Position numbers and translations under genes: made by a program. 64,000 nucleotides of DNA, taken from positions 19,963 through 83,962 of the forward strand of contig JBLHKO010000002.1 in the NCBI GenBank assembly GCA_047620145.1. Reading direction: 5' to 3'. The DNA comes from Gammaproteobacteria bacterium (GTDB lineage: Bacteria > Pseudomonadota > Gammaproteobacteria > Eutrophobiales > Eutrophobiaceae). This document shows, piece by piece, positions 50,775-62,848 of this stretch (position 1 is its first letter; the number at the start of each line of letters is the position of its first letter). Under the pieces are notes generated by a model. That model ran no database searches. It saw nothing but the letters and a program-made list of their open reading frames with translations, and had not been told where the DNA came from.

Positions 50775-52484
50775 ATGAAAATTGTCTCTCGACATTTTGC
50801 AAGTATTTTACCTCTGTTTTTTATAAGTCTGTTCTGTGTTTCAGCGGTTCATATTCAAACAACACAGGCACAATCGCCTCCCAGCGCAGCAATAGCCACA
50901 GCTCACCCTTTTGCCACAGACGCCGGCGAAGAAATTCTTCGTGCTGGAGGTAATGCCTTTGATGCTGCCGTGGCGATTACAGCGGCACTTGCAGTCGTCG
51001 AACCTTATAGCTCTGGTATTGGTGGTGGTGGTTTTTGGTTATTGCATCGTGCAGAGGACGGCAAACAAACGATGATTGATGGGCGAGAGGTTGCGCCAAT
51101 GTCTGCGGACAAAGATATGTATCTGGATAAAAATGGTAATGTTATCAAAGGTGCTTCAATTAATGGACCCAAGGCTGCGGGCATCCCAGGGGTGCCGGCA
51201 GGTCTGGAACATTTGGCAAAAAATTATGGTCGTTTACCATTAGAAAAAAGCCTGGCCCCTGCGATCAGATTTGCCGAAGAAGGTTTCCCTGTCACCGAGC
51301 GTTACCGGAAGTTGACGGCTTATCGACTTGAAACCATGAAGTCGTTTCGATCTACAGCGAATATTTTTCTAGAAAATGACCAAATCCCAAGCCTGGGATA
51401 TAACATTATTCAGAAAGATCTGGCGAAAACTTTAAGAAGGATAGCGAAACAGGGAGTAAGTTATTTTTACACAGGCGCGCTGGCTAGGAGAATGACGCAG
51501 GGATCTCGTAGTAGAGGCGGACAATGGAGTGACGCGGATCTTGCAAATTATAAAGTGATCGAACGGCAACCTGTAGTTAGTCAATATAAGAATTTACGTA
51601 TTATTTCAGCGCCACCACCCTCCTCAGGCGGAATTGTTTTAGCGCAAATTTTCGGCATGCTTGAAAAATTTGATCTGGATGCTCTGGATCATAATCAACG
51701 CAAACATGTTGTTATCGAAGCGATGCGACGCGCTTATCGAGATCGTGCAGCTTATCTGGGTGATCCAGATTTCGTTGATATTTCAGAACAAAGACTATTA
51801 GATAAGAATTATCTTGATGGACTCGCCGTTACTATTGATCTGGATCATGCGACGCCTAGTTCAGCGTTGGGCGATATTCCGATCTCTCAACAAACGGGCA
51901 CCAATACAACACATTTTTCAGTGATTGATAAAGAAGGGAATAGGGTTTCGGCTACGCTTAGCATTAATCTGCCTTTCGGCTCAGGCTTCGTGGTTCCCGG
52001 GACAGGCGTATTGTTGAACAATGAGATGGATGATTTCTCGGCCAAAGCACAAGTCCCAAACGCTTATGGCTTGGTCGGCGATCAGGCGAATGCTATCGCA
52101 GCCGGCAAACGTCCGCTCTCAAGTATGTCGCCAACGTTTATCGAGACTGATGACAGGGTCGGTATTTTAGGCACGCCCGGCGGCAGTCGGATTATCAGTA
52201 TGGTGTTGCTCGGTATTCTTGATTTTGCTGATGGCAATTTACCGAGCTCCTGGGTGACGGTGCCGCGTTATCATCATCAATATCTTCCCGATGAAGTACA
52301 GTTTGAACAAGGAGCACTGACACTTAATCAACAACGCGAACTCAAAAATCGTGGACACGTGTTAAATGAAAAAAATAGAGCCTACGGGAACATGCAGGCT
52401 ATCTTATGGGATAAAAAAATAAACAAATTATTTGCAGCCAGCGATCCTAGAGGCGAAGGCAGGGCGCTTGTGATAACCCCATGA
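50775..52484 (+). CDS. ggt: Gamma-glutamyltransferase
   Basis: A 569-aa ORF with a signal peptide. It has the autoprocessing Thr region (GTNTTHFSVIDKEGN) and GGSRII. Confidence 0.9.
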   Translation: MKIVSRHFASILPLFFISLFCVSAVHIQTTQAQSPPSAAIATAHPFATDAGEEILRAGGNAFDAAVAITAALAVVEPYSSGIGGGGFWLLHRAEDGKQTMIDGREVAPMSADKDMYLDKNGNVIKGASINGPKAAGIPGVPAGLEHLAKNYGRLPLEKSLAPAIRFAEEGFPVTERYRKLTAYRLETMKSFRSTANIFLENDQIPSLGYNIIQKDLAKTLRRIAKQGVSYFYTGALARRMTQGSRSRGGQWSDADLANYKVIERQPVVSQYKNLRIISAPPPSSGGIVLAQIFGMLEKFDLDALDHNQRKHVVIEAMRRAYRDRAAYLGDPDFVDISEQRLLDKNYLDGLAVTIDLDHATPSSALGDIPISQQTGTNTTHFSVIDKEGNRVSATLSINLPFGSGFVVPGTGVLLNNEMDDFSAKAQVPNAYGLVGDQANAIAAGKRPLSSMSPTFIETDDRVGILGTPGGSRIISMVLLGILDFADGNLPSSWVTVPRYHHQYLPDEVQFEQGALTLNQQRELKNRGHVLNEKNRAYGNMQAILWDKKINKLFAASDPRGEGRALVITP

Positions 52485-52583: not shown

Positions 52584-52898
52584 ATGAGAGAGTCGTTTGA
52601 ATATTTTATGGATCATTATACAAAACTAAACAGCCTGGCCCTGAATACCATTGAGCAGGTTACTATGTCTCAACTTAAGGCCTTTCAAGATAATGTGAAA
52701 ATCGGCTTTTATTCACTGACTTCCGCAAGTGAGATAGAGGATCTTGGTTCATTACAGACTTACATGGAAGAACAGACGGCGATTACACAATATGTAACCG
52801 ACAGTGCCGTTGATGAAGTTAAGGAAATTGCAGATCTTGGAGAATCCTATGCGAGCGAGGCCAAGGAGATTGTAGGGAAGATAATTCCTTCAGTTTAA
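52584..52898 (+). CDS. Hypothetical helical protein, possibly phasin-like
   Basis: A 104-aa Glu/Ala/Ser-rich protein predicted to be helical. I see no diagnostic motif. Confidence 0.3.
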   Translation: MRESFEYFMDHYTKLNSLALNTIEQVTMSQLKAFQDNVKIGFYSLTSASEIEDLGSLQTYMEEQTAITQYVTDSAVDEVKEIADLGESYASEAKEIVGKIIPSV

Positions 52899-52950: not shown

Positions 52951-54753
52951 TTACTCACTCAAGGCAAAACCAATCAAGGCATCCCCGCTAGGAGTTTGTA
53001 ATAATGCGTTACCACCTGCGGCGACAGCAACAAATTGTTGTCCCCCAACTTGATAGCTCATGGGTGGTGCGTTTACACCTGCCCCACAATTAAACTCCCA
53101 AAGCCGTTGCCCATTGCTGCTATCGAAGGCAGCAAACATCCCGCTTGCTTCTCCCATGAATACCAGGTTGCCTGATGTAGCCAGCACGCCACCAATCAAT
53201 GGTTGATCTGTTTTGATTTGCCACTTTATCTTACCTTTGTTACGCGTATCCAATGCTGTGAGTGTTCCCCAGCTAGATTCTGTCTTAGAAATGTCGGTTA
53301 AAATATAAGGCACTTCCTTCCCTTCGAAGGTACCGTGTTCTGTGCGATAGAGTGTGGGCTTATGAATTCCTGCAATAAATATAGTCCCGCTTGATGCATC
53401 GTATGAAGTCGGTGACCATGAAGCTCCGCCCCATGATCCTGGGTAGATAATTACACCTTCATCACTGGGGGCATGAAACATATTGCTTTGGGGAACAAAC
53501 GCTTCTGAGCGATAAATGAGCTCCCCAGTTTTGCGATCGTGCACATAAAACCAGCCAGTTTTCGCGGCTATACCAATGGCAGGAGTAACTTGCTCTCCTT
53601 CATGCAAATCAAATAACACAGAATTGCTTGCAACATCATAACCCCATAAATCGTGAGGCACTTGTTGATAATGCCAACGGGTTTCGCCAGTGTATGCGTC
53701 AATTGCGACCAACGAATTAGCGTAAAGGTTATCGCCAGGCCTAGCACTTGAAACATCGTTTGGTGAAGCATTGCCTGTGCCTACATAAATCAATCCAAGC
53801 TTCGGATCAAATGAAGGAGTGCTCCATGTAGAACTACCACCGATACGCCAGCGATCTTTTAGTTCAGTGGATAATTCCTTTTCACGTACAATATCCCGAG
53901 GCAAGACTTCACCTTGTGGTGTTTTAGAGGCAAACTCACCTTCCCAATCACCACTTTTGGTGGTGAACCAACGCCAAACTTCTTCGCCCGTATTTACATT
54001 AAAGGCAGCAATGTAGCCGCGCAGTCCGATAAAACGATCTGCTGCTGGTATTTTGTCGGGGGAAACGCCTTTTAGTGCAAATTGCGAGAATATATTATAA
54101 AACATACCGTAACCGGCTGCTGTTACTCCAACGACGACCAGGTCGCGATAAACTATCGGCGCCATTTTAGCAGGCAAAGTATCACTATTTTCTATTAAAA
54201 AGTCTTTTTGTGTTTGCGTAAGCCCTTCAAGCTCGGCGACAGTGGGGCGCGCGATAATTGTGTCCCAGACGATATCGCCGGTTGTTTGATCAAGCGCAAT
54301 CAGACGTCCGTCATTCGTAGCTTCAAATACCTTACCGTGACCTAGTGCTGCACCACGATTGGCAGGACCGCCTTTGTTATTTTCTTTTCGATTTTTATGT
54401 TCGTAGCGCCAAAGAACCGTCCCCTTTGCGGCATCTAAAGCTACAACATCGTTACCCGGAATGGTGGCATACATGACGCCATCTGCAACTAGTGGTTGTG
54501 TCTGAAAAGATCCAATTTTACCAGATTGAAATATCCATTTTGGAACTAGTCGTTTAACGTTATCACGGTTAACTTGTGTGAGTGGTGAAAAATTTTGATT
54601 GCTATAGTCATGACCAAAGGAGAGCCAGTTACTTGAATCATGTGAAGCGGCAAGTAGCCGGTTTGCATCGACGACCGAATTGCTGTTTTCGGCAGCGGTT
54701 GAAAGTGCTATTAGCGACAAGAGAGTCGTTACAATGAGTTTATGTTTTGGCAT
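52951..54753 (-). CDS. PQQ-dependent dehydrogenase (quinoprotein alcohol/methanol dehydrogenase-like 8-bladed propeller) with a signal peptide
   Basis: A 600-aa ORF with repeated W-containing propeller motifs and an ...NCGAGVNAPPMSYQVGGQQFVAVAAGG C-terminal region typical of PQQ-ADH. The vicinal Cys-Cys typical of type I MDH/ADH is not evident. Confidence 0.7.
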   Translation of the reverse strand: MPKHKLIVTTLLSLIALSTAAENSNSVVDANRLLAASHDSSNWLSFGHDYSNQNFSPLTQVNRDNVKRLVPKWIFQSGKIGSFQTQPLVADGVMYATIPGNDVVALDAAKGTVLWRYEHKNRKENNKGGPANRGAALGHGKVFEATNDGRLIALDQTTGDIVWDTIIARPTVAELEGLTQTQKDFLIENSDTLPAKMAPIVYRDLVVVGVTAAGYGMFYNIFSQFALKGVSPDKIPAADRFIGLRGYIAAFNVNTGEEVWRWFTTKSGDWEGEFASKTPQGEVLPRDIVREKELSTELKDRWRIGGSSTWSTPSFDPKLGLIYVGTGNASPNDVSSARPGDNLYANSLVAIDAYTGETRWHYQQVPHDLWGYDVASNSVLFDLHEGEQVTPAIGIAAKTGWFYVHDRKTGELIYRSEAFVPQSNMFHAPSDEGVIIYPGSWGGASWSPTSYDASSGTIFIAGIHKPTLYRTEHGTFEGKEVPYILTDISKTESSWGTLTALDTRNKGKIKWQIKTDQPLIGGVLATSGNLVFMGEASGMFAAFDSSNGQRLWEFNCGAGVNAPPMSYQVGGQQFVAVAAGGNALLQTPSGDALIGFALSE

Positions 54754-54937
54754 TTGCTATCTTTACTCCGTCCACTGCTTCTATGATTTGATTGCTACCT
54801 GATGCCCAGCTATAGGTGTCAAAAATGTGATTGCTACTTAAAGTATTGTTTGAATTTATATAAAAAGCAGGAGAAACACAACAGATCAATAAAGATAATC
54901 CACAAAGAAAGGTCGCTAGAAGACAAGGGTTTTTCAT
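54740..54937 (-). CDS. Small putative secreted protein (65 aa) wedged between the AstE-like gene and the PQQ dehydrogenase
   Basis: It has a signal-like N terminus (MKNPCLLATFLCGLSLLICCVSPA). It begins 5 bp after the AstE-like stop and overlaps the PQQ-DH start by 14 nt. It could be spurious. Confidence 0.25.
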   Translation of the reverse strand: MKNPCLLATFLCGLSLLICCVSPAFYINSNNTLSSNHIFDTYSWASGSNQIIEAVDGVKIANAKT

Positions 54938-54942
54938 ATAAT

Positions 54943-56256
54943 TTAATGAAGCTCTTCTTCTTGTTCAGCGCTGTATTCGTTATCTGTACTAATTGTGTCT
55001 TTATCAGAATAATCAAGCAACTCGTCAACATGATTTATTTCTTCGGCATTAATGATTGCTGAATCCTCTGTTTCTATGGCTATATGGAATGCGGCATAAC
55101 CTGGAAGCATAAATTGATTTAGTGCCATTCCCAATATACGGCCTTTGACAGGTGCCCTTATCTCTATTTGTTTGTTGGTTAATGGATTTATGATATGTCC
55201 AAGTAAACTATTTTCTTGTACAAATGAACCAATTTTTTGATTTGAGATCATGATTCCACCACTATTTACTCTTATCCAGCGTGATTGGTAGTAAATAGGT
55301 CGGGTTCCAGACTGCAAATGTAAAGTCTTTAAGACACCAATATTTGCCATCATGGCATTAATTGTTTTTACGCCAGACTCAACCAATTCATTTTGTAAGG
55401 AGCCTGGCTGTCCGAGCTCAAATGTTACAGAGGGTATTCCCGCATTAGATGCTGCCGTTCGTAAAATACCTGCACTTCCTTGTTTATGTAGAACAGTTGT
55501 TGAGTCAAAATAGTTAATGAAATCTCTAACTTGTGGATTACGCATATCCGCACGTATCTGAGGCAGGTTATCGCGTTTTAAGGAGCCAGTATGGAAATCA
55601 ACAAGGTAATCGCAATGGGTTATAATTTGATTAAAGAATTTATAGGCTATGCGCGATGCTGAGCTGCCATCAGGTCTGCCGGGGAAATAGCGATTGAGGT
55701 CTCGTCTGTCTGGCAGGTAACGTGAACCGTGAGTGAAGCCGAATATGTTAACAATCGGCACGCCTATGACGGTTCCAGAAATTTTTGATGGTTCAAGAGA
55801 ACGGAGAACGCGCCTTACAATCTCGATTCCATTTATTTCATCACCATGTATTGCTGCAACGAGACAAACAACCGATCCCGTATTCTGGCCCCGAGCAATT
55901 AACACAGGCGGGCTGACAATGCGACCTGAAAAAGATTGACCCGCCGACCAATTAAGCTCTGATAATGTTCCGGGCTGAACATTTTTATCTAAAATTATTA
56001 AAGGGCCTTGTGAGCCGACATCCTGTGGAAAATAAAGCGTTTTATCTTTACTGTCAGAGTGGTTTATTTTGAGAGCAGGTGAATCATTAATAAGATCGAG
56101 GGCAATCTCTGATGTGGTGATTCCTTTTTTATGGCTATCTTGTTCAGCATATGTATTGAAACTTGCTAGATAAATACTGAAAAAAAGCAGAGCTAAGAAA
56201 GAATATTTGAACAAGTATAATTCACTAATATTCATTTTTAGCAATAGATTTTGCAA
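54943..56256 (-). CDS. Succinylglutamate desuccinylase/aspartoacylase (AstE/AspA, M14-like) family protein with a signal peptide and an acidic C-terminal tail
   Basis: GDEINGIEIVRRVL and HTGS match the AstE/AspA zinc-site pattern. The C terminus reads ...NEYSAEQEEELH. It overlaps the upstream RimK-like gene. Confidence 0.7.
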   Translation of the reverse strand: MQNLLLKMNISELYLFKYSFLALLFFSIYLASFNTYAEQDSHKKGITTSEIALDLINDSPALKINHSDSKDKTLYFPQDVGSQGPLIILDKNVQPGTLSELNWSAGQSFSGRIVSPPVLIARGQNTGSVVCLVAAIHGDEINGIEIVRRVLRSLEPSKISGTVIGVPIVNIFGFTHGSRYLPDRRDLNRYFPGRPDGSSASRIAYKFFNQIITHCDYLVDFHTGSLKRDNLPQIRADMRNPQVRDFINYFDSTTVLHKQGSAGILRTAASNAGIPSVTFELGQPGSLQNELVESGVKTINAMMANIGVLKTLHLQSGTRPIYYQSRWIRVNSGGIMISNQKIGSFVQENSLLGHIINPLTNKQIEIRAPVKGRILGMALNQFMLPGYAAFHIAIETEDSAIINAEEINHVDELLDYSDKDTISTDNEYSAEQEEELH

Positions 56257-57172
56257 TCAAGATACGCTCTTTGGCATTCACGGGGAGAGTCTCTAATGCA
56301 TCAATTGCGTCGAAACGATGTTGCAGTCCTTCACCGTTAGCAATTTGGATAGATAATCCTGGTCGTGCATTTAACTCCAACACCAGGGGTCCCAGTTCAG
56401 CGTCCAAAACTATATCTACACCAAGAAAACCCAGTGGAGCAAACTCATAACAACGCGCGGCCAATAGCAGCAGCTCTTCCCATCTAGGGATTACCAAATT
56501 ATTTAATGGTGTGCCAAAGTCAGGGTGTTCAGTAATGCGACGATCTTTGCAGACAGCTAAAGTAGTAATCCCCGAATCCAATTGTACGCCAACTCCGATT
56601 GCTCCTTGATGGAGGTTGGCCTTGCCATCAGATTGCTGTGTCGGCAATCGCAGCATAGCCATTGCGGGTATGCCCTTATAAACCAGGATTCGTATATCGG
56701 GCACACCCTGGTAACTCATAGCGTTAAATACAGGATCAAATTTGACACGGTATTCTATGATGGCTTGATCGACCTGACCGCCAAGGCTATAAACACCGCC
56801 CAGAATATTAGCAATATGATGGCCTAAAAATTCTTTATCTATAGTAGCACCACTGGCTTTAGTGAATATATCTTTGCGCCGATTTTGAATCACAAGGATG
56901 CCTTTGCCACCACTCCCATGGGCGGGTTTGACAACAAAGTCTTGTTTGTCATAAATTATTTTCTCGAAGGAATTTGCATCGTGCACAGTTGATATCACAC
57001 CATAAAGCTTAGGGACAGCAATGTTAGCGCGTTCAGCTAATTGTTTAGTTCGAACTTTGTCATCAACGAGCTTGTACATGGCTCGCGGATTATTTGGCAT
57101 GACGTAGTTGTGGTTACGGGCATTTATCCCGACAACGCCGGCTTTACGAAGATTTCGGATCCGATTCAACAT
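56225..57172 (-). CDS. RimK-like ATP-grasp ligase (alpha-L-glutamate ligase-related protein)
   Basis: It has an ATP-grasp fold with KPAHGSGGKGILV and LGVDIVLDAELGPLVLELNARPGLSIQIANG. The 315-aa size is typical of the RimK-related 'E-ligase' family. Confidence 0.8.
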   Translation of the reverse strand: MLNRIRNLRKAGVVGINARNHNYVMPNNPRAMYKLVDDKVRTKQLAERANIAVPKLYGVISTVHDANSFEKIIYDKQDFVVKPAHGSGGKGILVIQNRRKDIFTKASGATIDKEFLGHHIANILGGVYSLGGQVDQAIIEYRVKFDPVFNAMSYQGVPDIRILVYKGIPAMAMLRLPTQQSDGKANLHQGAIGVGVQLDSGITTLAVCKDRRITEHPDFGTPLNNLVIPRWEELLLLAARCYEFAPLGFLGVDIVLDAELGPLVLELNARPGLSIQIANGEGLQHRFDAIDALETLPVNAKERILIAKSIAKNEY

Positions 57173-58727
57173 CTTTAATTGTTTCTTCCGATAAATCTTT
57201 AAAACGGATTAGTTCGTTCAGGCGATAGCCTGTATATCTACCAGTTGCAATAAATATTGCAAGTAACACCAGAAGGAGTTCTGGAAAGGTAAATATAATA
57301 TGTTCAAGATAGTTATTACTCATCACAAAATAGCCGATCACGGCGGTAAATAAACTTCCCATGCTTTCTTTAAACGCATCAAATGGACCTGCTTCTTCCC
57401 AGGTTATCGACATACGTTCAATCACCATTGTTATGATAACCAGAGGGAACAGTGCAATCGAAAAACCGCGGTCAAGATTTAGCTCATTGCTTAATAGACT
57501 GATTGATAGCATTAAGATGATAACCATAACGAGTACAGCGCTTAGTCTTGGCACCAGCAACAGGTTCAAACGTTCAAGATAGAAACGAAAAGTCAGGCCG
57601 CTACTAACTATCAGGCAGAACAGTAAAATACCCCATAATAATTCTGTTTCTCTAAAGGCCAGCGCGATAAGTATTGGCATGAACGTACCAAAGGTGGGGA
57701 CACCGACTATCGTGCGCATAAAAACAACCACTAAAACACCCAAGGGGATCATCAATAATATTTTGTAAACATTTTGTGTGCTGATAGGAAGTTTATTTAG
57801 AGACAAGGCGCGGAGTAATGATTGTTTTGTTTCGGCGCGTTCTTGTGAAATTTCTGTATCAGAATAGGGGCGCTGTGATACTGAAAAGCGAAGATGTTCG
57901 TTTGTGCCTCCTTGTATGCTCAACACGGGATCATTACCAATACTCCAGCGTAGAAAATTCCCCGGGTAACCTGTACTACCAAAAATCGGATCAAATCCTT
58001 CCCAGGTTTGTCCATTGTGTACTTCGAGCCAATAAATCAGTTTTGCATCGTTAAAGTCTTCCCCAAGGCTTAAGCCTCTTACAAGACGCGAAGAAATCCT
58101 CGCACCTTCTAGAATATAGATAATGCGTTTTACCCACTCCTCACTTCCCGGGGAGTTGCCTTTTTGTATGACAAGTACATTTTTACTGGGCGAAGGGCTA
58201 TTAAGGTGAACCAGCAATTGACTAACAAAAGTAAAAACATCGGCTGATTCACTGCGAACTTTTTCTAGCGTATCTTCAATGGCAGAAGCAAGCGGTTCTT
58301 CATAATCCGGTTTCTCAGGCACAGGAGGTAATTTAGACTTCTGAGTTGTTTCCCCCTGCGCAAGCTCTTCAGGTACCACTTCGATACGGTAATAAAGATG
58401 CTGTCTATCATTCGCTTTGCGTATAGACCATTCTGCCATGCGATCAGTTTGCGTGTTGGTGACATTTAATCCGTAATTTCGTGAGACAAAAAATTCTTCT
58501 AATTTTAGAAACGCGCCCAACTTATCTGGGATATCGAGATTAACTTTGGCGGAACGACCAGAGCCATCGAATTCAACTCGTGCTTCAACAGCCCAGATGG
58601 TCGATACTTGATTCGGGAGAAGTGGCAATCCCAAGGACTTCACCTTGGCATACATTATTCCCAGGCCCAATATGGTGAGTAGGAGAATCAGGAGTTTAAC
58701 GTTTAGGTTACGCATCAAAGTAAACAT
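57144..58727 (-). CDS. Inactive transglutaminase-like domain fused to a 7-TM module
   Basis: A 527-aa ORF. It has an N-terminal anchor, a ~300-aa extracytoplasmic domain, and seven C-terminal hydrophobic helices. It overlaps the RimK-like gene by 29 nt. Confidence 0.65.
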   Translation of the reverse strand: MFTLMRNLNVKLLILLLTILGLGIMYAKVKSLGLPLLPNQVSTIWAVEARVEFDGSGRSAKVNLDIPDKLGAFLKLEEFFVSRNYGLNVTNTQTDRMAEWSIRKANDRQHLYYRIEVVPEELAQGETTQKSKLPPVPEKPDYEEPLASAIEDTLEKVRSESADVFTFVSQLLVHLNSPSPSKNVLVIQKGNSPGSEEWVKRIIYILEGARISSRLVRGLSLGEDFNDAKLIYWLEVHNGQTWEGFDPIFGSTGYPGNFLRWSIGNDPVLSIQGGTNEHLRFSVSQRPYSDTEISQERAETKQSLLRALSLNKLPISTQNVYKILLMIPLGVLVVVFMRTIVGVPTFGTFMPILIALAFRETELLWGILLFCLIVSSGLTFRFYLERLNLLLVPRLSAVLVMVIILMLSISLLSNELNLDRGFSIALFPLVIITMVIERMSITWEEAGPFDAFKESMGSLFTAVIGYFVMSNNYLEHIIFTFPELLLVLLAIFIATGRYTGYRLNELIRFKDLSEETIKDVESDPKSS

Positions 58728-58760
58728 GAGTTATGGAAAAGTGCATATAAAATGATAGGT

Positions 58761-59282
58761 TCAATTATTAAGTAAGCACAATCTGTTTGCTAGAAAGATT
58801 TTATCTGCATCCACAAGGAAATTACCTTTCAATGTCATACGACCCAGGAGAAGCGGATAATTAAAACTTGACCTGTCTGACAAGGTGACGGGCGTGAGAT
58901 AGTTTTCGCCACCTAAGCAGAACTCGATCTCAACAACATATCGGCTAACGCTCTCTCCTATGTGTTCTTTAATTTTGGTTTCGCGGATGATGGGCTTCTC
59001 AACTTCAATAGCCTTGACTGATCCATTTTTTTTGTAAATCAAATCAGGTAATGTAAATCTTACCCAGTCTTCATCGTTAATTTTAAATGGTTCGATGTTG
59101 ATTGCATGTATAGAGCTGGTACGAGCCCCTGTATCTAGTTTAGCCTTAACCCTAACGGATCCAGGTTGAAGATAGGCCCATTCTAGCCACCCAAGGACGT
59201 CTAGCCTCGCCAGAGCGGGGCTACTTAAAAGCATTGAAAGCAAGATAAAAATAAATTTATCTCGTTTTTTAATTACACGCAT
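58761..59282 (-). CDS. Retropepsin-like aspartic peptidase (DUF785, the so-called putative ATP-dependent zinc protease family), secreted
   Basis: A 173-aa ORF with a signal peptide and a KLDTGARTSS (D-T-G-A) aspartic protease motif. It is the first gene of the operon. Confidence 0.65.
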   Translation of the reverse strand: MRVIKKRDKFIFILLSMLLSSPALARLDVLGWLEWAYLQPGSVRVKAKLDTGARTSSIHAINIEPFKINDEDWVRFTLPDLIYKKNGSVKAIEVEKPIIRETKIKEHIGESVSRYVVEIEFCLGGENYLTPVTLSDRSSFNYPLLLGRMTLKGNFLVDADKIFLANRLCLLNN

Positions 59283-59471
59283 TCTTTATTAAGGCTCTCT
59301 TTTTAAAAAAGGAGGCGAGTATATAGAGTCTAAATTAAAGATGTACTAATCATTTTAATACGTGAGTAACCAGACGGCGGAGATTGGATTAAATATCAGC
59401 ACAAACTGCCGGGGGCCACTCGGCCCTAGCTTCCTGCTTCACTTTACCACTTACATTCATGATGTCTTGTA

Positions 59472-59505
59472 CATAAAAAAGGCCGCATTTGCATGCAGCC
59501 TTTCG
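59472..59505 (-). terminator. Rho-independent terminator downstream of hppA
   Basis: On the minus strand the sequence reads aaggctgcatgcaaatgcggccttttttat. It is GC-stem plus U-run. Confidence 0.55.
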
Positions 59506-59526: not shown

Positions 59527-61542
59527 TTAAGTCAGTAACGGCGCAATCACCAAGCTGACAATGGCCATGACATTAATCAGGATGTTCATGGCAGGGCCTG
59601 AAGTATCTTTCATTGGGTCACCGACGGTATCACCTACAACGGCTGCTGTGTGAACGTCAGAACCTTTGCCGCCCAAGTTTCCTTTCTCAATGTACTTCTT
59701 GGCATTATCCCAGGCACCACCCGCGTTAGCCATGAACAGAGCCATCATGACGCAGCAGATTAAAGCGCCGCCTAACATTCCCCCCAGTGCTTTCGGACCT
59801 AAGCCAAAGCCGACCACGACAGGGGCTAATACGGCAAGGGCGCCGGGCATGATCATTTTTCTTAGCGCAGCACGAGTGGCAATATCAATACAACGCGCGG
59901 TATCTGGTTTGCCAGTACCTTCAAGTAAACCAGGGATCTCTTTAAACTGCCGGCGGATTTCCTTGATCATTTCAAAGGCTGCATCACCCACGGCAGTCAT
60001 GGTCATGGCGCTCACCAGGAATGGGAAAATGCCACCAAGGAACATGCCGCAGAGCACGATTGGATCATTCAGCCTGAGTATAAATTCAGGATCGTTCAGC
60101 GTGATCTTTTCGATAAAGGCGCTGATTAATGCCAGCGCGGCAAGAGCCGCAGCACCAATCGCAAAGCCTTTACCAATGGCGGCTGTTGTATTGCCGACTT
60201 CATCCAGTGAATCAGTGATTTCACGTGTTTCCTTACCCATATTTGCCATCTCGGCGATGCCGCCTGCGTTATCTGCAACAGGACCATAGGCATCAATCGC
60301 CATGGTGATGCCGACGGTCGCAAGCATGCCGACAGCAGCAATACCGACGCCATAGAGACCCGCAAAGTGGCTGGAGGTGAAGATAATGGCGCAGATAGTA
60401 ATAACAGGAATGGCAACAGATTGCATACCAGTAGCAAGCCCTGAAATGATGACTGTCGCCGGGCCGGTTTCGCCATCTTTGGCAATCTTACGCACCGGTG
60501 CACCACCTGTGTAATATTCAGTAACCAATCCAATCACAATGCCACCAACGGCGCCAGAGAGTACTGCAACCCAAATGTCACTAGAGCCACCCATCTGTGC
60601 GATCAGGAAATAGGCTGCCGCGATGAAGATAAGTGATGAACCCATGGTGCCTATACGCAAGGCAACTTCGGGACTTTTTGCAGAAAAGATTTTGACAGAA
60701 TAGATGCCTATCATTGAACAAATCAGGCCAGCTGAGGCCAAGGCCAAAGGCATGAATGTCAGCGTTTCTTGGCCTGTTGTAGAAAGTGTTGCCACAACGT
60801 CCGTGCTCATCGTTGCAGCGAGTGCAATAGTTGCAATCATCGCGCCACAATAAGATTCAAAGATATCTGATCCCATGCCTGCAACATCGCCAACGTTATC
60901 GCCGACATTATCTGCAATTACACCTGGATTGCGTGGGTCGTCTTCAGGGATGCCAGCTTCAAGTTTACCTACCAGATCAGCACCGACGTCAGCGCTCTTG
61001 GTGAAGATGCCGCCGCCTACACGAGAGAATAAAGCAACAGAGGATGCGCCCATGGCGAAGCCTTCTATTGCGTGAATAGTATGTGGATCACTTGCAAAGA
61101 AATAATACAGAATGCCAACACCAAACAAGCCCATGGCTGCAACTGTAAGTCCCATGATTGAGCCTCCAAAGAAGGCGACTTGTAGGGCTGCAGCTGCGCC
61201 TTTATTATTGGCGGCAACTGCTGTTCTTACGTTTGCGTGGGTTGCGGTATACATACCAAAATAACCTGCGGAACCTGAACAGAGGGCACCGAGCAGAAAG
61301 GCCATTGCAGTGTTCATGCCCAAATCAGAACTGGCAATGGCTACAATACAAATGACGCAAAAGATAGCTAGGCGTGAATACTCACTCTTCATGAAGACCA
61401 TGGCACCGAGATGAATTTCATTTCCAATCTCAACGACCTTGCCTTCACCGGCGGGCTCTGCCTTGACCTTCAAAAAGACCAGTACAGCACAAATAAGACC
61501 AAAAATGCCTAACCAAATAGGCAGAGTGGTTATAGACGACAT
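59527..61542 (-). CDS. hppA: Membrane-bound proton/sodium-translocating pyrophosphatase
   Basis: A 671-aa ORF with ~16 TM helices and the V-PPase motifs [17 protein letters not shown] and DNVGDNVGD. Confidence 0.95.
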
Positions 61543-62261: not shown

Positions 62262-62579
62262 TTAAGGCTCAAGTCGATCTTTGTTTAATAATTTGTGACC
62301 TTCAAAAACCGTGACGATAAGAACGGTTTCATTCTGAACCAGATAAACGATGCGGTAATCCCCTAAAAATACTTCGCGAATATTATTATTTTCAAATTCA
62401 GGAACGATACGTCCGGACATTGGTGCATCGATAATTTTTCTTGCTCTTGTCCGTAATTGTTTAATCCATTTTTTGGCATTGACTAGATTATCTTCGGCAA
62501 TAAATTTACCGATTGAAATTAGATCGTCCTGAGCTCGTTTCGTCCATGCTAATTTCGTTTTTGCTAAGTGATCACAAAT
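62262..62579 (-). CDS. ParE/RelE-family toxin of a type II TA pair. It has no canonical start codon and is absent from the ORF track
   Basis: Hand translation of the minus strand gives ...LAKTKLAWTKRAQDDLISIGKFIAEDNLVNAKKWIKQLRTRARKIIDAPMSGRIVPEFENNNIREVFLGDYRIVYLVQNETVLIVTVFEGHKLLNKDRLEP*. The frame opens just after a TAG and overlaps the antitoxin stop. The only in-frame candidate start upstream of LAW is an ATT. Confidence 0.55.
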   Translation of the reverse strand: MCDHLAKTKLAWTKRAQDDLISIGKFIAEDNLVNAKKWIKQLRTRARKIIDAPMSGRIVPEFENNNIREVFLGDYRIVYLVQNETVLIVTVFEGHKLLNKDRLEP

Positions 62580-62848
62580 TCCTCCCTAAGCGTAGCTGAT
62601 AATTCCTCGTCAGAAATAATGTTTCCTGCTTTGGCATCTTGCAGACCCTCTTTTACAGCAGCAAAAAATTGTTCCTGTCTAGATAATCGATCAAATTCTT
62701 CAGGTGTCAGCAGGACGGCGGCAGGCTTACCATTTTGAGTAATAATCACAGGGCGATTTTTTTCATGCAGATTGCGTAAAACTTTGGAGGCATGAGTCTT
62801 GAACTGTCCGAGGGGGAAAATATCTTCAGATATAAGAATGGATTTCAT
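62564..62848 (-). CDS. Phd/YefM-family antitoxin
   Basis: A 94-aa ORF with the Phd/YefM pattern MKSI.ISE......K.H.SKVLR.L....RPVIITQNGKP.AVLL..EEFD.L. Confidence 0.75.
   Translation of the reverse strand: MKSILISEDIFPLGQFKTHASKVLRNLHEKNRPVIITQNGKPAAVLLTPEEFDRLSRQEQFFAAVKEGLQDAKAGNIISDEELSATLREEFVIT

Follow-up and report, generated by a model that had tools for sequence, protein, structure and literature searches.

The rloABC system was named in P. aeruginosa by Lormand et al. (mBio 2025), who described an operon of three genes that contributes to tolerance of hypo-osmotic conditions, to the formation of biofilms and to resistance against beta-lactams (PMC12239564). In vitro, RloA cuts alpha-Glu stretches of at least 8 residues and leaves those of 6 or fewer uncut. 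Moreover, deletion of all RloA paralogues (rloA1-3) is lethal in low-salt medium, and this lethality is suppressed by deletion of rloB or rloC (PMC12239564). The words carboxypeptidase, deacylase, desuccinylase and aspartoacylase are all absent from the main text of that paper. Poly-alpha-L-glutamate is produced by RimK and trimmed by RimB (PMC11957791), and in cyanophycin turnover CphZ is the precedent for an AstE/AspA-family enzyme that completes the breakdown of a polymer made by an ATP-grasp enzyme (PMC9974463).

The window analyzed here, a stretch of 64,000 nucleotides from an uncultured gammaproteobacterium, had been predicted to hold four packed minus-strand genes of named families. In fact, all four open reading frames were found at exactly the positions given (Table 1), and the family assignments are borne out by Pfam matches well above the gathering cut-offs. 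These are PF05618 for rloA (121.5 bits against 27; 3e-35), PF14400 and PF14402 among the proteins of the four genes (154.2 and 338.4 bits, each against 25), PF14397 for rloC (295.9 bits against 31.4; 3.5e-88) and PF24827 for gene 4 (150.9 bits against 25; 4e-44).

Table 1. Predicted features of the rlo locus, in coordinates of the window.
Feature	Position	Strand	Description or basis
rloA	58761..59282	(-)	retropepsin-like aspartic peptidase, secreted, 173 aa
rloB	57144..58727	(-)	inner-membrane protein, 527 aa
rloC	56225..57172	(-)	cytoplasmic ATP-grasp ligase, alpha-L-glutamate ligase-like, 315 aa
gene 4 ("rloD-like", accessory)	54943..56235	(-)	AstE/AspA-type zinc hydrolase, 430 aa from ATG
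gene 4, alternative TTG start at 56256	54943-56256	(-)	437 aa
deletable 38-nt segment within gene 4	56083..56120	(-)	DNA alignment
intergenic region 5' of rloA, presumed promoter region	59283..59475	(-)	alignment
intrinsic terminator of upstream pyrophosphatase gene	59476..59504	(-)	hairpin and U-run
65-aa ORF	54740-54937		adjoins gene 4
PQQ dehydrogenase	52951-54753

Judged from sequence, the first three genes are rloA, rloB and rloC, an ordinary example of the envelope-stress operon rloABC, since their Pfam and TIGRFAM matches exceed the cut-offs, the A-B-C order is kept, and the RloA structures and contact residues agree. The N-terminus of RloA is hydrophobic and signal-peptide-like (MRVIKKRDKFIFILLSMLLSSPALA) and its DTG motif lies at residues 50-52, as expected of the secreted D-T-G peptidase that had been proposed. 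Its top NCBIfam models are RloA3, RloA, RloA2 and RimB, all under their narrow cut-offs, and its nearest solved structures are 9g58 and 9g59. By alignment, the catalytic D48 of the P. aeruginosa protein is kept, and so are most of the residues that contact polyglutamate (K46, R92, K95, K97, R114 and R137; PMC12239564); H stands in place of R99, and the loop that holds K109 is absent from the window protein. RloB has an N-terminal TM helix, then a periplasmic beta-sandwich and a transglutaminase-like domain free of cysteine, and then a C-terminal multi-helix (7TM) domain. Its top species-level match has 58% identity. RloA and RloB both fall short of their narrow NCBIfam models, with 124 bits for a cut-off of 210 and 419 for one of 900.

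RloC passes TIGR02291 (alpha-L-glutamate ligase-like) with 431.9 bits against a cut-off of 314.2. It is neither a canonical RimK nor a glutathione synthetase, with 23.9 bits against 331 for PRK10446 (RimK), 51 against 143.4 for a second RimK model and 26.7 against 272 for the glutathione synthase model. The nearest solved sequences, RimK 5zct and 4iwx, are weakly matched (E about 6e-5), and the weak match to Pfam TTL (19.7 bits) falls just under the cut-off of 20.1. Among related loci, rloC follows rloB in 80/80 and rloA is upstream in 54/75. The 33-nt gap between rloA and rloB and the 29-nt overlap of rloB with rloC are present as predicted, the latter also in loci L004 and L167.

The window operon resembles that of P. 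aeruginosa in its three domain architectures (secreted DTG retropepsin-like peptidase, inactive transglutaminase-7TM fusion and cytoplasmic ATP-grasp ligase), their order and their single strand (PMC12239564), but adds a fourth gene. In RimABK, too, an alpha-glutamate ligase of the ATP-grasp type has a retropepsin-like endopeptidase as its partner, by which polyglutamate is trimmed (PMC11957791), RloA being homologous to RimB and RloC to RimK. However, the cytoplasm is where RimB and RimK work, with RpsF as their target, whereas the window peptidase has a signal peptide, the window ligase fails the RimK models, a membrane-protein gene stands between the two, and the EAL-domain RimA is absent from the window system.

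The start of gene 4 is probably the ATG at 56235, because homologues begin at its equivalent (MNI.../MTI...); this gives 430 aa and an 11-nt overlap with rloC (ATGAATATTAG), and the 32-nt overlap of the original prediction is valid for the TTG start only. Its sequence features identify gene 4 as a zinc hydrolase of the AstE/AspA type that is secreted and has kept its catalytic residues. In ATG numbering, it comprises a hydrophobic, signal-peptide-like N-terminus (1-30), a disordered linker (31 to about 75), catalytic and capping domains (about 76-388) and an acidic disordered tail (389-430) ending in EQEEELH; secretion and tail were both as predicted. The H-E-H zinc triad and the catalytic Glu are intact, and H130, E133, H215, E273 and the RRDLNRYFPG motif are invariant among homologues. 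No NCBIfam equivalog is reached (DoeB 91 bits against 402.7, AstE 26 against 305.65, ASPA 30 against 180, MpaA 19.8 against 157). The AF2 model has a mean pLDDT of 82.7, with the tail below 50, disordered and undocked. When the full-length fold including the capping domain was searched with Foldseek, the top matches were 3na6, DoeB and 3cdx, followed by CphZ and AstE; the murein tripeptide amidase MpaA (5hxd and 4axv) was also returned, at E about 1e-9. The five former matches are small-substrate enzymes. Every homologue carries an acidic tail of 34-85 aa with 10-25 D/E and just 0-7 K/R, and its end is clade-specific yet conserved, being [DE][DE][DE]-x-His in 47/97 homologues and Glu in many others.

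Gene 4 suggests a parallel with cyanophycin turnover (CphA, cyanophycinase, CphZ), where an ATP-grasp enzyme makes an amino-acid polymer, an endopeptidase cuts it, and the last hydrolytic step falls to a zinc enzyme of the AstE/AspA family encoded in the same cluster (PMC9974463). In structure gene 4 matches CphZ (E 2e-19), and it keeps the triad and the catalytic Glu, but sequence identity is only about 15%, and it is closer to DoeB-like enzymes, secreted, acidic-tailed and of predicted activity; the window polymer is presumed to be polyglutamate and not Asp/Arg. In eukaryotes, tubulin polyglutamylation by TTLL ligases (ATP-grasp) is opposed by CCP deglutamylases (M14 carboxypeptidases). There too an ATP-grasp glutamate ligase faces a zinc hydrolase of the carboxypeptidase-A-like clan, and RloC has its weak TTL match; this is an analogy only, the subfamilies being different and the window compartment the bacterial envelope.

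The surrounding DNA delimits the unit. The upstream terminator (hairpin of -18 kcal/mol, z -4.7, then a U-run) has an equivalent hairpin in L167, the nearest relative, and sets the 5' limit of the rlo transcription unit. A block of the intergenic region is conserved with L167 by alignment; a consensus scan of its minus strand gave no sigma-70-like match, and the rloA promoter is presumed only. Downstream, the 65-aa ORF begins 5 nt past the stop of gene 4 and shares 14 nt with the PQQ dehydrogenase gene. Both adjoin the operon as originally described, but they are a lineage-specific insertion outside the conserved unit. Within gene 4, a 38-nt segment flanked by a TCACC direct repeat is missing in three metagenome contigs of the same population, which are otherwise 99.8-99.9% identical to the window, and its loss leaves signal peptide and enzyme in different reading frames. 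The allele of the window is the ancestral one, since the encoded residues have homologous counterparts in P0002; the deletion allele indicates that gene 4 is dispensable, at least in that population.

As to linkage, the four-gene synteny exists outside the window genome, in L004, L167, L007 and others, but the four genes are not always co-inherited. At species level, 20/80 loci have a gene 4 homologue no more than 8 kb from rloB and 60/80 lack one; the chance expectation is about 0.4% by our own estimate (16-kb neighbourhood, assumed 4-Mb genome). The homologue is found in 18/54 rloA-positive loci versus 0/21 rloA-negative ones (Fisher p = 0.0018, phylogeny ignored) and is the sole recurrent accessory family. 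Near rlo it is co-directional downstream, co-directional upstream, divergent or convergent, and these arrangements are spread over several clades of its tree. In the window clade all members with visible context are linked to rlo, and the gene 4 start overlaps or abuts the rloC end in the window, L167 and L004. Conversely, rlo genes are present at 7/80 gene 4 homologue loci in metagenomes. Solo homologues have a lipid A acyltransferase nearby in 32/80 loci, a Kdo kinase in 22/80 and a heptosyltransferase in 14/80, and a YkuD L,D-transpeptidase neighbours the homologue in 22/80; both samples are skewed to close relatives or one abundant lineage. As homologues elsewhere are mostly solo, many adjoining LPS genes, the link is facultative. 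The few rlo-bearing loci and the solo copies beside lipid A/LPS-core genes and YkuD show that the family has a role independent of adjacency to rlo, which could be envelope- or peptidoglycan-related.

Our main reading, tentative and given a probability of roughly 45%, is that the locus is an rloABC operon with a translationally coupled fourth gene, whose product is a hydrolase of the periplasm that finishes oligo-glutamate breakdown. RloC, as a cytoplasmic relative of RimK, would build an alpha-glutamate-rich product, free or on an acceptor. RloB, whose transglutaminase-like domain is catalytically dead, would be required alongside RloC for making, exporting or presenting that product, as Pseudomonas genetics suggests. 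The secreted RloA dimer would cut long alpha-polyglutamate in the periplasm, as its P. aeruginosa orthologue does in vitro, and gene 4 would there hydrolyse the oligo- and di-glutamates too short for RloA to free glutamate, or alternatively remove a residual N-acyl-glutamate stub. Such a cycle would parallel that of cyanophycin. Points against it are the three-gene P. aeruginosa operon, the 7/80 linked homologues, the deletion allele and the sample skew; furthermore, the substrate specificity of gene 4 is not readable from sequence. We know of no biochemical product of RloC or RloB in any organism.

The frequency of solo copies also allows that gene 4 sits beside rlo for no functional reason, as a periplasmic scavenging deacylase or dipeptidase (N-acyl amino acids, dipeptides) that was simply carried there in some lineages. 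Its absence from most rlo loci, the frameshifting allele and the catabolic role of the family enzymes with defined function (AstE, ASPA, DoeB, CphZ) point the same way. We consider this unlikely, however, given the four arrangements across several clades, the restriction to rloA-positive loci, the overlap with rloC in the window clade and the status of gene 4 as sole recurrent accessory gene. It is likewise improbable that gene 4 encodes an amidase for the envelope or for peptidoglycan peptides, acting for example on stem peptides that contain gamma-D-Glu or on some other amide linked to the cell wall or LPS, with rlo tuning cell-wall homeostasis, so that the two meet at the cell wall and not at polyglutamate. 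The LPS and YkuD neighbours and the fold matches to MpaA (5hxd and 4axv) would suit it, and a peptidoglycan link is a speculation of Lormand et al., whose discussion covers cell-shape and beta-lactam phenotypes (PMC12239564). Yet the MpaA structural match is far weaker than those to DoeB, AstE or CphZ-type enzymes, the MpaA model is failed, the LPS neighbours may reflect one abundant lineage (the clade with a DYVDGMSE tail), and the polyglutamate-cleavage residues of RloA are also required in vivo in P. aeruginosa (PMC12239564).

The acidic tail, universal and conserved at its end by clade, might itself contact the system, as a pseudo-substrate or regulatory element for RloA or the RloB periplasmic domain, or as an acceptor extended with glutamate by RloC before export, in the way that RimK lengthens ribosomal protein S6 at its acidic C-terminus. 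S6 ends Glu-Glu, unlike the terminal His of the window tail. The positively charged substrate channel of RloA would suit this reading, but RloA left a mixed D/E stretch of CprS uncut in vitro (PMC12239564). An 8-Glu run is absent from the window tail, solo homologues have equally acidic tails, and the model leaves it undocked, which together make this very unlikely.

Overall, the original observation is confirmed and its interpretation partly supported. Its statement that no substrate or role had been defined is out of date, since the substrate and genetics of P. aeruginosa rloABC were published in 2025, and its ligate-and-trim idea fits the published rlo genetics (PMC12239564). The window rloABC is a distant orthologue of the P. 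aeruginosa system in an uncultured gammaproteobacterium. What is new is gene 4, which recurs next to rloABC operons as a previously undescribed add-on and may complete the breakdown of the system's presumed polyglutamate product.

The ORF list reproduced the four minus-strand genes at the positions originally predicted, together with the 33-nt gap after gene 1 and the 29-nt overlap of genes 2 and 3. The earlier domain calls also held, with Pfam scores far over the gathering thresholds in every case (PF05618 for gene 1, PF14400 and PF14402 for gene 2, PF14397 for gene 3 and PF24827 for gene 4). The first three genes are almost certainly orthologues of rloA, rloB and rloC, which were named by Lormand et al. 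(mBio 2025, PMC12239564). In Pseudomonas aeruginosa the operon rloA, rloB, rloC encodes a secreted retropepsin-like peptidase, an inactive-transglutaminase-7TM inner-membrane protein and a cytoplasmic ATP-grasp protein (PMC12239564). RloA cuts 8 or 10 consecutive alpha-glutamates and not 6 or fewer; a triple rloA1-3 mutant does not grow in salt-free LB and is also defective in biofilm, beta-lactam response and cell shape, and these defects are suppressed by deletion of rloB or rloC (PMC12239564). Both the phenotypes and the polyglutamate cleavage are known for P. aeruginosa only (PMC12239564). Poly-alpha-glutamate is made by RimK-type ligases and trimmed by RimB (PMC11957791). In its core, the window operon is thus a system already known and characterised recently, which makes the original premise of missing experimental data out of date.

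Features of the rlo operon and its surroundings in the window
Feature	Position	Strand	Remarks
gamma-glutamyltranspeptidase (GGT) gene	50775-52484	plus	near the operon in the window and L167, not in L004
phasin gene	52584-52898	plus	
PQQ-dependent dehydrogenase	52951-54753	minus	TIGR03075 405.7 bits, below the cut-off of 480
65-aa ORF	54740-54937	minus	hydrophobic N-terminus, no family match, same population only
gene 4	54943-56256	minus	437 aa with TTG start, ORF list
acidic tail of gene 4	54943-55068	minus	C-terminal 42 codons
38-nt deleted segment of gene 4	56083-56120	minus	flanked by TCACC direct repeats
gene 3 (rloC)	56225-57172	minus	315 aa, ORF list
gene 2 (rloB)	57144-58727	minus	527 aa, ORF list
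gene 1 (rloA)	58761-59282	minus	173 aa, ORF list
intrinsic terminator of the membrane pyrophosphatase gene	about 59476-59504	minus	-18 kcal/mol, z -4.7, then U-run
membrane pyrophosphatase	59527-61542		upstream neighbour of the rlo operon
Phd/YefM-family antitoxin gene	62564-62848	minus	

Gene 1 scores 121.5 bits with PF05618 (cut-off 27), carries DTG at residues 50-52 and has a hydrophobic, signal-peptide-like N-terminus closing in ...PALA. We aligned it to 9g58, a solved structure among those closest to the window RloA; the alignment follows the published P. aeruginosa numbering after a shift of 20. By that numbering, K46, D48, R92, K95, K97, R114 and R137, seven residues known to act in polyglutamate binding and cleavage by the P. 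aeruginosa RloA, are all conserved in gene 1; H stands in place of the flap residue R99, and K109 falls in a loop that is absent. Gene 2 matches the RloB architecture, namely an inactive transglutaminase-like periplasmic domain plus 7TM, and its cytoplasmic C-terminus is conserved (GRYTGYRL.EL.RF). The top NCBIfam models for genes 1 and 2 are RloA, RloA2, RloA3, RimB and RloB. The curated Rlo cut-offs are unreached (RloA3 124.4 vs 210, RloA 84.3 vs 280, RloB 419.1 vs 900, and likewise RloA2 for gene 1), yet as equivalog and exception models they are narrow, and the scores therefore mark the window proteins as distant orthologues, with no sign of another family. RimB, which is cytoplasmic and has no signal peptide, was rejected for gene 1 on its score (NF052261 78.7 vs 200) and on the signal-peptide-like N-terminus. 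Gene 3 reaches 431.9 bits with TIGR02291 ('alpha-L-glutamate ligase-like protein'; cut-off 314.2), and fails as RimK, the S6 glutamate ligase (PRK10446 23.9 vs 331; TIGR00768 51 vs 143.4), and with the models of canonical glutathione synthetase. The ligase therefore lies outside both canonical families, placement in which had been named beforehand as counter-evidence to the original prediction.

We further focused on gene 4, an exported, AstE/AspA-type zinc hydrolase. Its predicted 32-nt overlap with rloC holds for the TTG start and is reduced to 11 nt, ATGAATATTAG, when an internal ATG at 56235 is used. This ATG is the equivalent start in five close homologues (MNI.../MTI...) and gives a protein of 430 aa. 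AGAG stands 6 nt 5' of the TTG, so the longer form may also be made. Membership in the AstE/AspA superfamily is clear (PF24827 150.9 bits vs cut-off 25), and the zinc triad H130, E133 and H215, the catalytic E273 (ATG numbering) and the motifs RRDLNRYFPG, HGDE, DFHTG and FELG do not vary among 97 homologues. None of the named equivalog cut-offs is reached (DoeB 91.4 vs 402.7, AstE 26.1 vs 305.65, ASPA 30.1 vs 180, MpaA 19.8 vs 157). Roles in ectoine (DoeB) or arginine (AstE) catabolism were rejected on these low scores, on the signal peptide and on the lack of pathway genes nearby, including those of the arginine-succinyltransferase pathway.

The AF2 model of gene 4 (mean pLDDT 82.7) consists of an N-terminal helix corresponding to the signal peptide (the mature protein being residues 31-430), a disordered linker, confident catalytic and beta capping domains and a disordered tail. 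Its best structural matches are 3na6, DoeB (6twm, 6twl), 3cdx and 2qj8, with target-normalised TM-scores of about 0.82, followed by the cyanophycin dipeptide hydrolase CphZ (E 2e-19), AstE, aminoacylase 3, ASPA and MpaA. Judging by the aspartoacylase structure, the capping domain of this family limits the active site to small substrates. Such a restriction fits the characterised family members, all of which split N-acyl amino acids or dipeptides.

The conservation of the operon was analysed among 80 RloB-anchored loci, taken from one genome per GTDB species, with RloB identity of 41-60%. These loci span Methylococcaceae, Nitrosomonas, Thioalkalivibrio, Woeseiaceae, Chromatiaceae, Porticoccaceae, Oceanococcus and others, and their neighbours were detected by tblastn with the window proteins. 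The predicted linkage of the first three genes is well borne out, since rloC directly follows rloB in 80/80 loci and, of the 75 with sufficient flank, 54 have rloA upstream. About a quarter of the rloB-rloC loci have no adjacent rloA, mostly in Woeseiaceae, Chromatiaceae and Ectothiorhodospiraceae-type genomes (including L043, L047, L049, L050, L055, L057, L058, L066, L068-L072, L075, L077-L079 and L082), and in about 10-14 of these rloA-less loci rloB-rloC is flanked by ubiH-like and glycine-cleavage (gcvT/H/P) genes.

Constant co-inheritance of all four genes, raised as a check in the original prediction, was not found. A gene 4 homologue occurs within 8 kb of rloB in 20/80 loci, or 14/56 where both flanks are long enough, and rlo genes occur at 7/80 loci in a gene 4-anchored metagenome sample. 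Among the 20 linked loci, gene 4 is downstream and co-directional in 14, upstream and co-directional in 2, and divergent in 4; at two metagenome loci it is convergent. The closest relatives are the richest in linkage, with 6 of 8 loci at RloB identity of at least 55%. Moreover, the linkage is confined to rloA-positive loci (18/54 vs 0/21, p = 0.0018, uncorrected for phylogeny), and clustering of all neighbouring ORFs returned gene 4 as the sole recurrent accessory family. In a neighbour-joining tree, the clade of the window is linked in every member with visible context (L167, L004, L007, L009, L010, L087, L014 and L015), and elsewhere linked and solo clades are intermingled, one large solo clade having a tail that ends in DYVDGMSE. 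Both samples are biased; taken together with the tree, the counts in the two directions indicate that the association of gene 4 with rlo is real and recurrent, but facultative.

Variation was also seen within the population of the window. Three JGI metagenome contigs that share 99.8-99.9% identity with the window are missing a 38-nt stretch of gene 4 (near 6909 in L001, 4320 in L002 and 2013 in L003). The resulting frameshift cuts the catalytic domain off from its signal peptide, and JGI calls this allele as a 389-aa protein without a signal peptide. Residues of the deleted segment have homologues in the nearest relative, L167, so the intact allele of the window is the ancestral one. Within this population, gene 4 is evidently either dispensable or variable.

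As for the boundaries of the unit, a strong terminator after the pyrophosphatase gene, missed by the consensus terminator scan and with a counterpart in L167, implies that rloA opens its own transcription unit. The consensus scan gave no convincing minus-strand promoter 5' of rloA. It also gave no terminator-like site between gene 4 and the PQQ dehydrogenase, so read-through may occur. The dehydrogenase and the 65-aa ORF lie downstream as first described; they were rejected as members of the conserved unit, because both are missing there in L167 and in L004, another four-gene relative. L167 (RloB 83% and gene 4 65% identical to the window) has a convergent GST after gene 4 and then a GGT-CoaD-RsmD-M16-M16-FtsY-FtsE-FtsX block as in the window, and lacks the phasin gene as well as the dehydrogenase and 65-aa ORF at the equivalent position; the flanks of L004 are different again. 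Judging by these differing flanks, a lineage-specific insertion seems to have placed the three genes between gene 4 and GGT, and the dehydrogenase and 65-aa ORF may be co-transcribed with gene 4 in the window strain. The GGT gene belongs to the conserved block, so its proximity is probably incidental despite the glutamate theme. An Rfam scan of the whole window had no matches, and a PADLOC scan covering the products of genes 1-4 and the 65-aa ORF came back empty, so a defence-system reading was dropped. In L001, the matching metagenome contig, a weak ParE-like toxin call lies next to the Phd/YefM antitoxin.

We propose that RloC and RloB would generate a glutamate-rich product reaching the periplasm and that RloA would fragment it. 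Given the limit of RloA, short oligomers would be left behind, and gene 4, exported to the same compartment, would hydrolyse what RloA leaves uncut. By analogy, the closest precedent for this role is CphZ, an AstE/AspA-family enzyme whose gene clusters with those of an ATP-grasp synthetase and an endopeptidase and which carries out the final hydrolysis (PMC9974463). Gene 4 may act in a similar way; it is not a CphZ member itself, being only about 15% identical, with a likeness that is structural only, and no cyanophycin synthetase or cyanophycinase was seen among the checked genes near the window operon. The repeated recruitment of a second periplasmic hydrolase, only with RloA and from a family whose characterised members split small N-acyl amino acids and dipeptides, supports a model in which a small acidic peptide would be turned over. 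We give the whole model, rloABC plus gene 4 finishing the hydrolysis of RloA leftovers, a probability of about 0.45; that gene 4 is functionally linked to rlo in some way is rather probable.

Two other readings of gene 4 are each unlikely. An envelope or peptidoglycan amidase would suit the surroundings of the solo copies (loci L088-L165), where lipid A acyltransferase (PF03279, 32/80), Kdo kinase (22/80), heptosyltransferase (14/80) and YkuD L,D-transpeptidase (22/80) genes recur. This LPS neighbourhood may reflect one abundant lineage or an rlo-independent envelope role. Incidental adjacency to rlo is in line with the many unlinked copies, among them a solo one in the deposited NCBI assembly of Halioglobus japonicus, and with the frameshifted allele; against it stands the restriction of linkage to loci with rloA. 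The tail brings in a further reading. Every gene 4 homologue has a C-terminal tail of 34-85 aa with 10-25 D/E vs 0-7 K/R, which is disordered in the AF2 model of the window protein (pLDDT below 50). It ends in [DE][DE][DE]-x-His in 47/97 homologues (EQEEELH in the window), and other clade-conserved ends are ...E[YF]D, ...EEGS, ...DYVDGMSE and ...DPxE. Its acidity and conserved ends would suit a pseudo-substrate or acceptor; we regard this use of the tail as very improbable. A fuller form of the preferred model is less likely than not: gene 4 would be a facultative fourth Rlo component, a dedicated periplasmic oligo-glutamate hydrolase that completes a cycle of alpha-polyglutamate synthesis, export, endo- and exo-cleavage, with its acidic tail coupling it to RloA or RloB.

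Neither gene 4 nor the way it recurs at rloA-positive loci seems to have been described before. The main text of Lormand et al. (PMC12239564) uses none of the words carboxypeptidase, deacylase, desuccinylase and aspartoacylase, and in literature searches for RloD, or for AstE with RimK or transglutaminase, the only relevant papers were Lormand 2025 and Little 2025, the in-silico study of Iyer et al. 2009 being outside their scope. If the link is incidental, all that is left is one more ordinary orthologue of an operon already known. Through gene 4, the question of what Rlo systems produce and break down becomes open to a concrete biochemical test, and if the model is true, a dedicated oligo-glutamate hydrolase would be the first biochemical handle on the product of a system that affects osmotic survival, the formation of biofilms and the tolerance of beta-lactams in P. 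aeruginosa.
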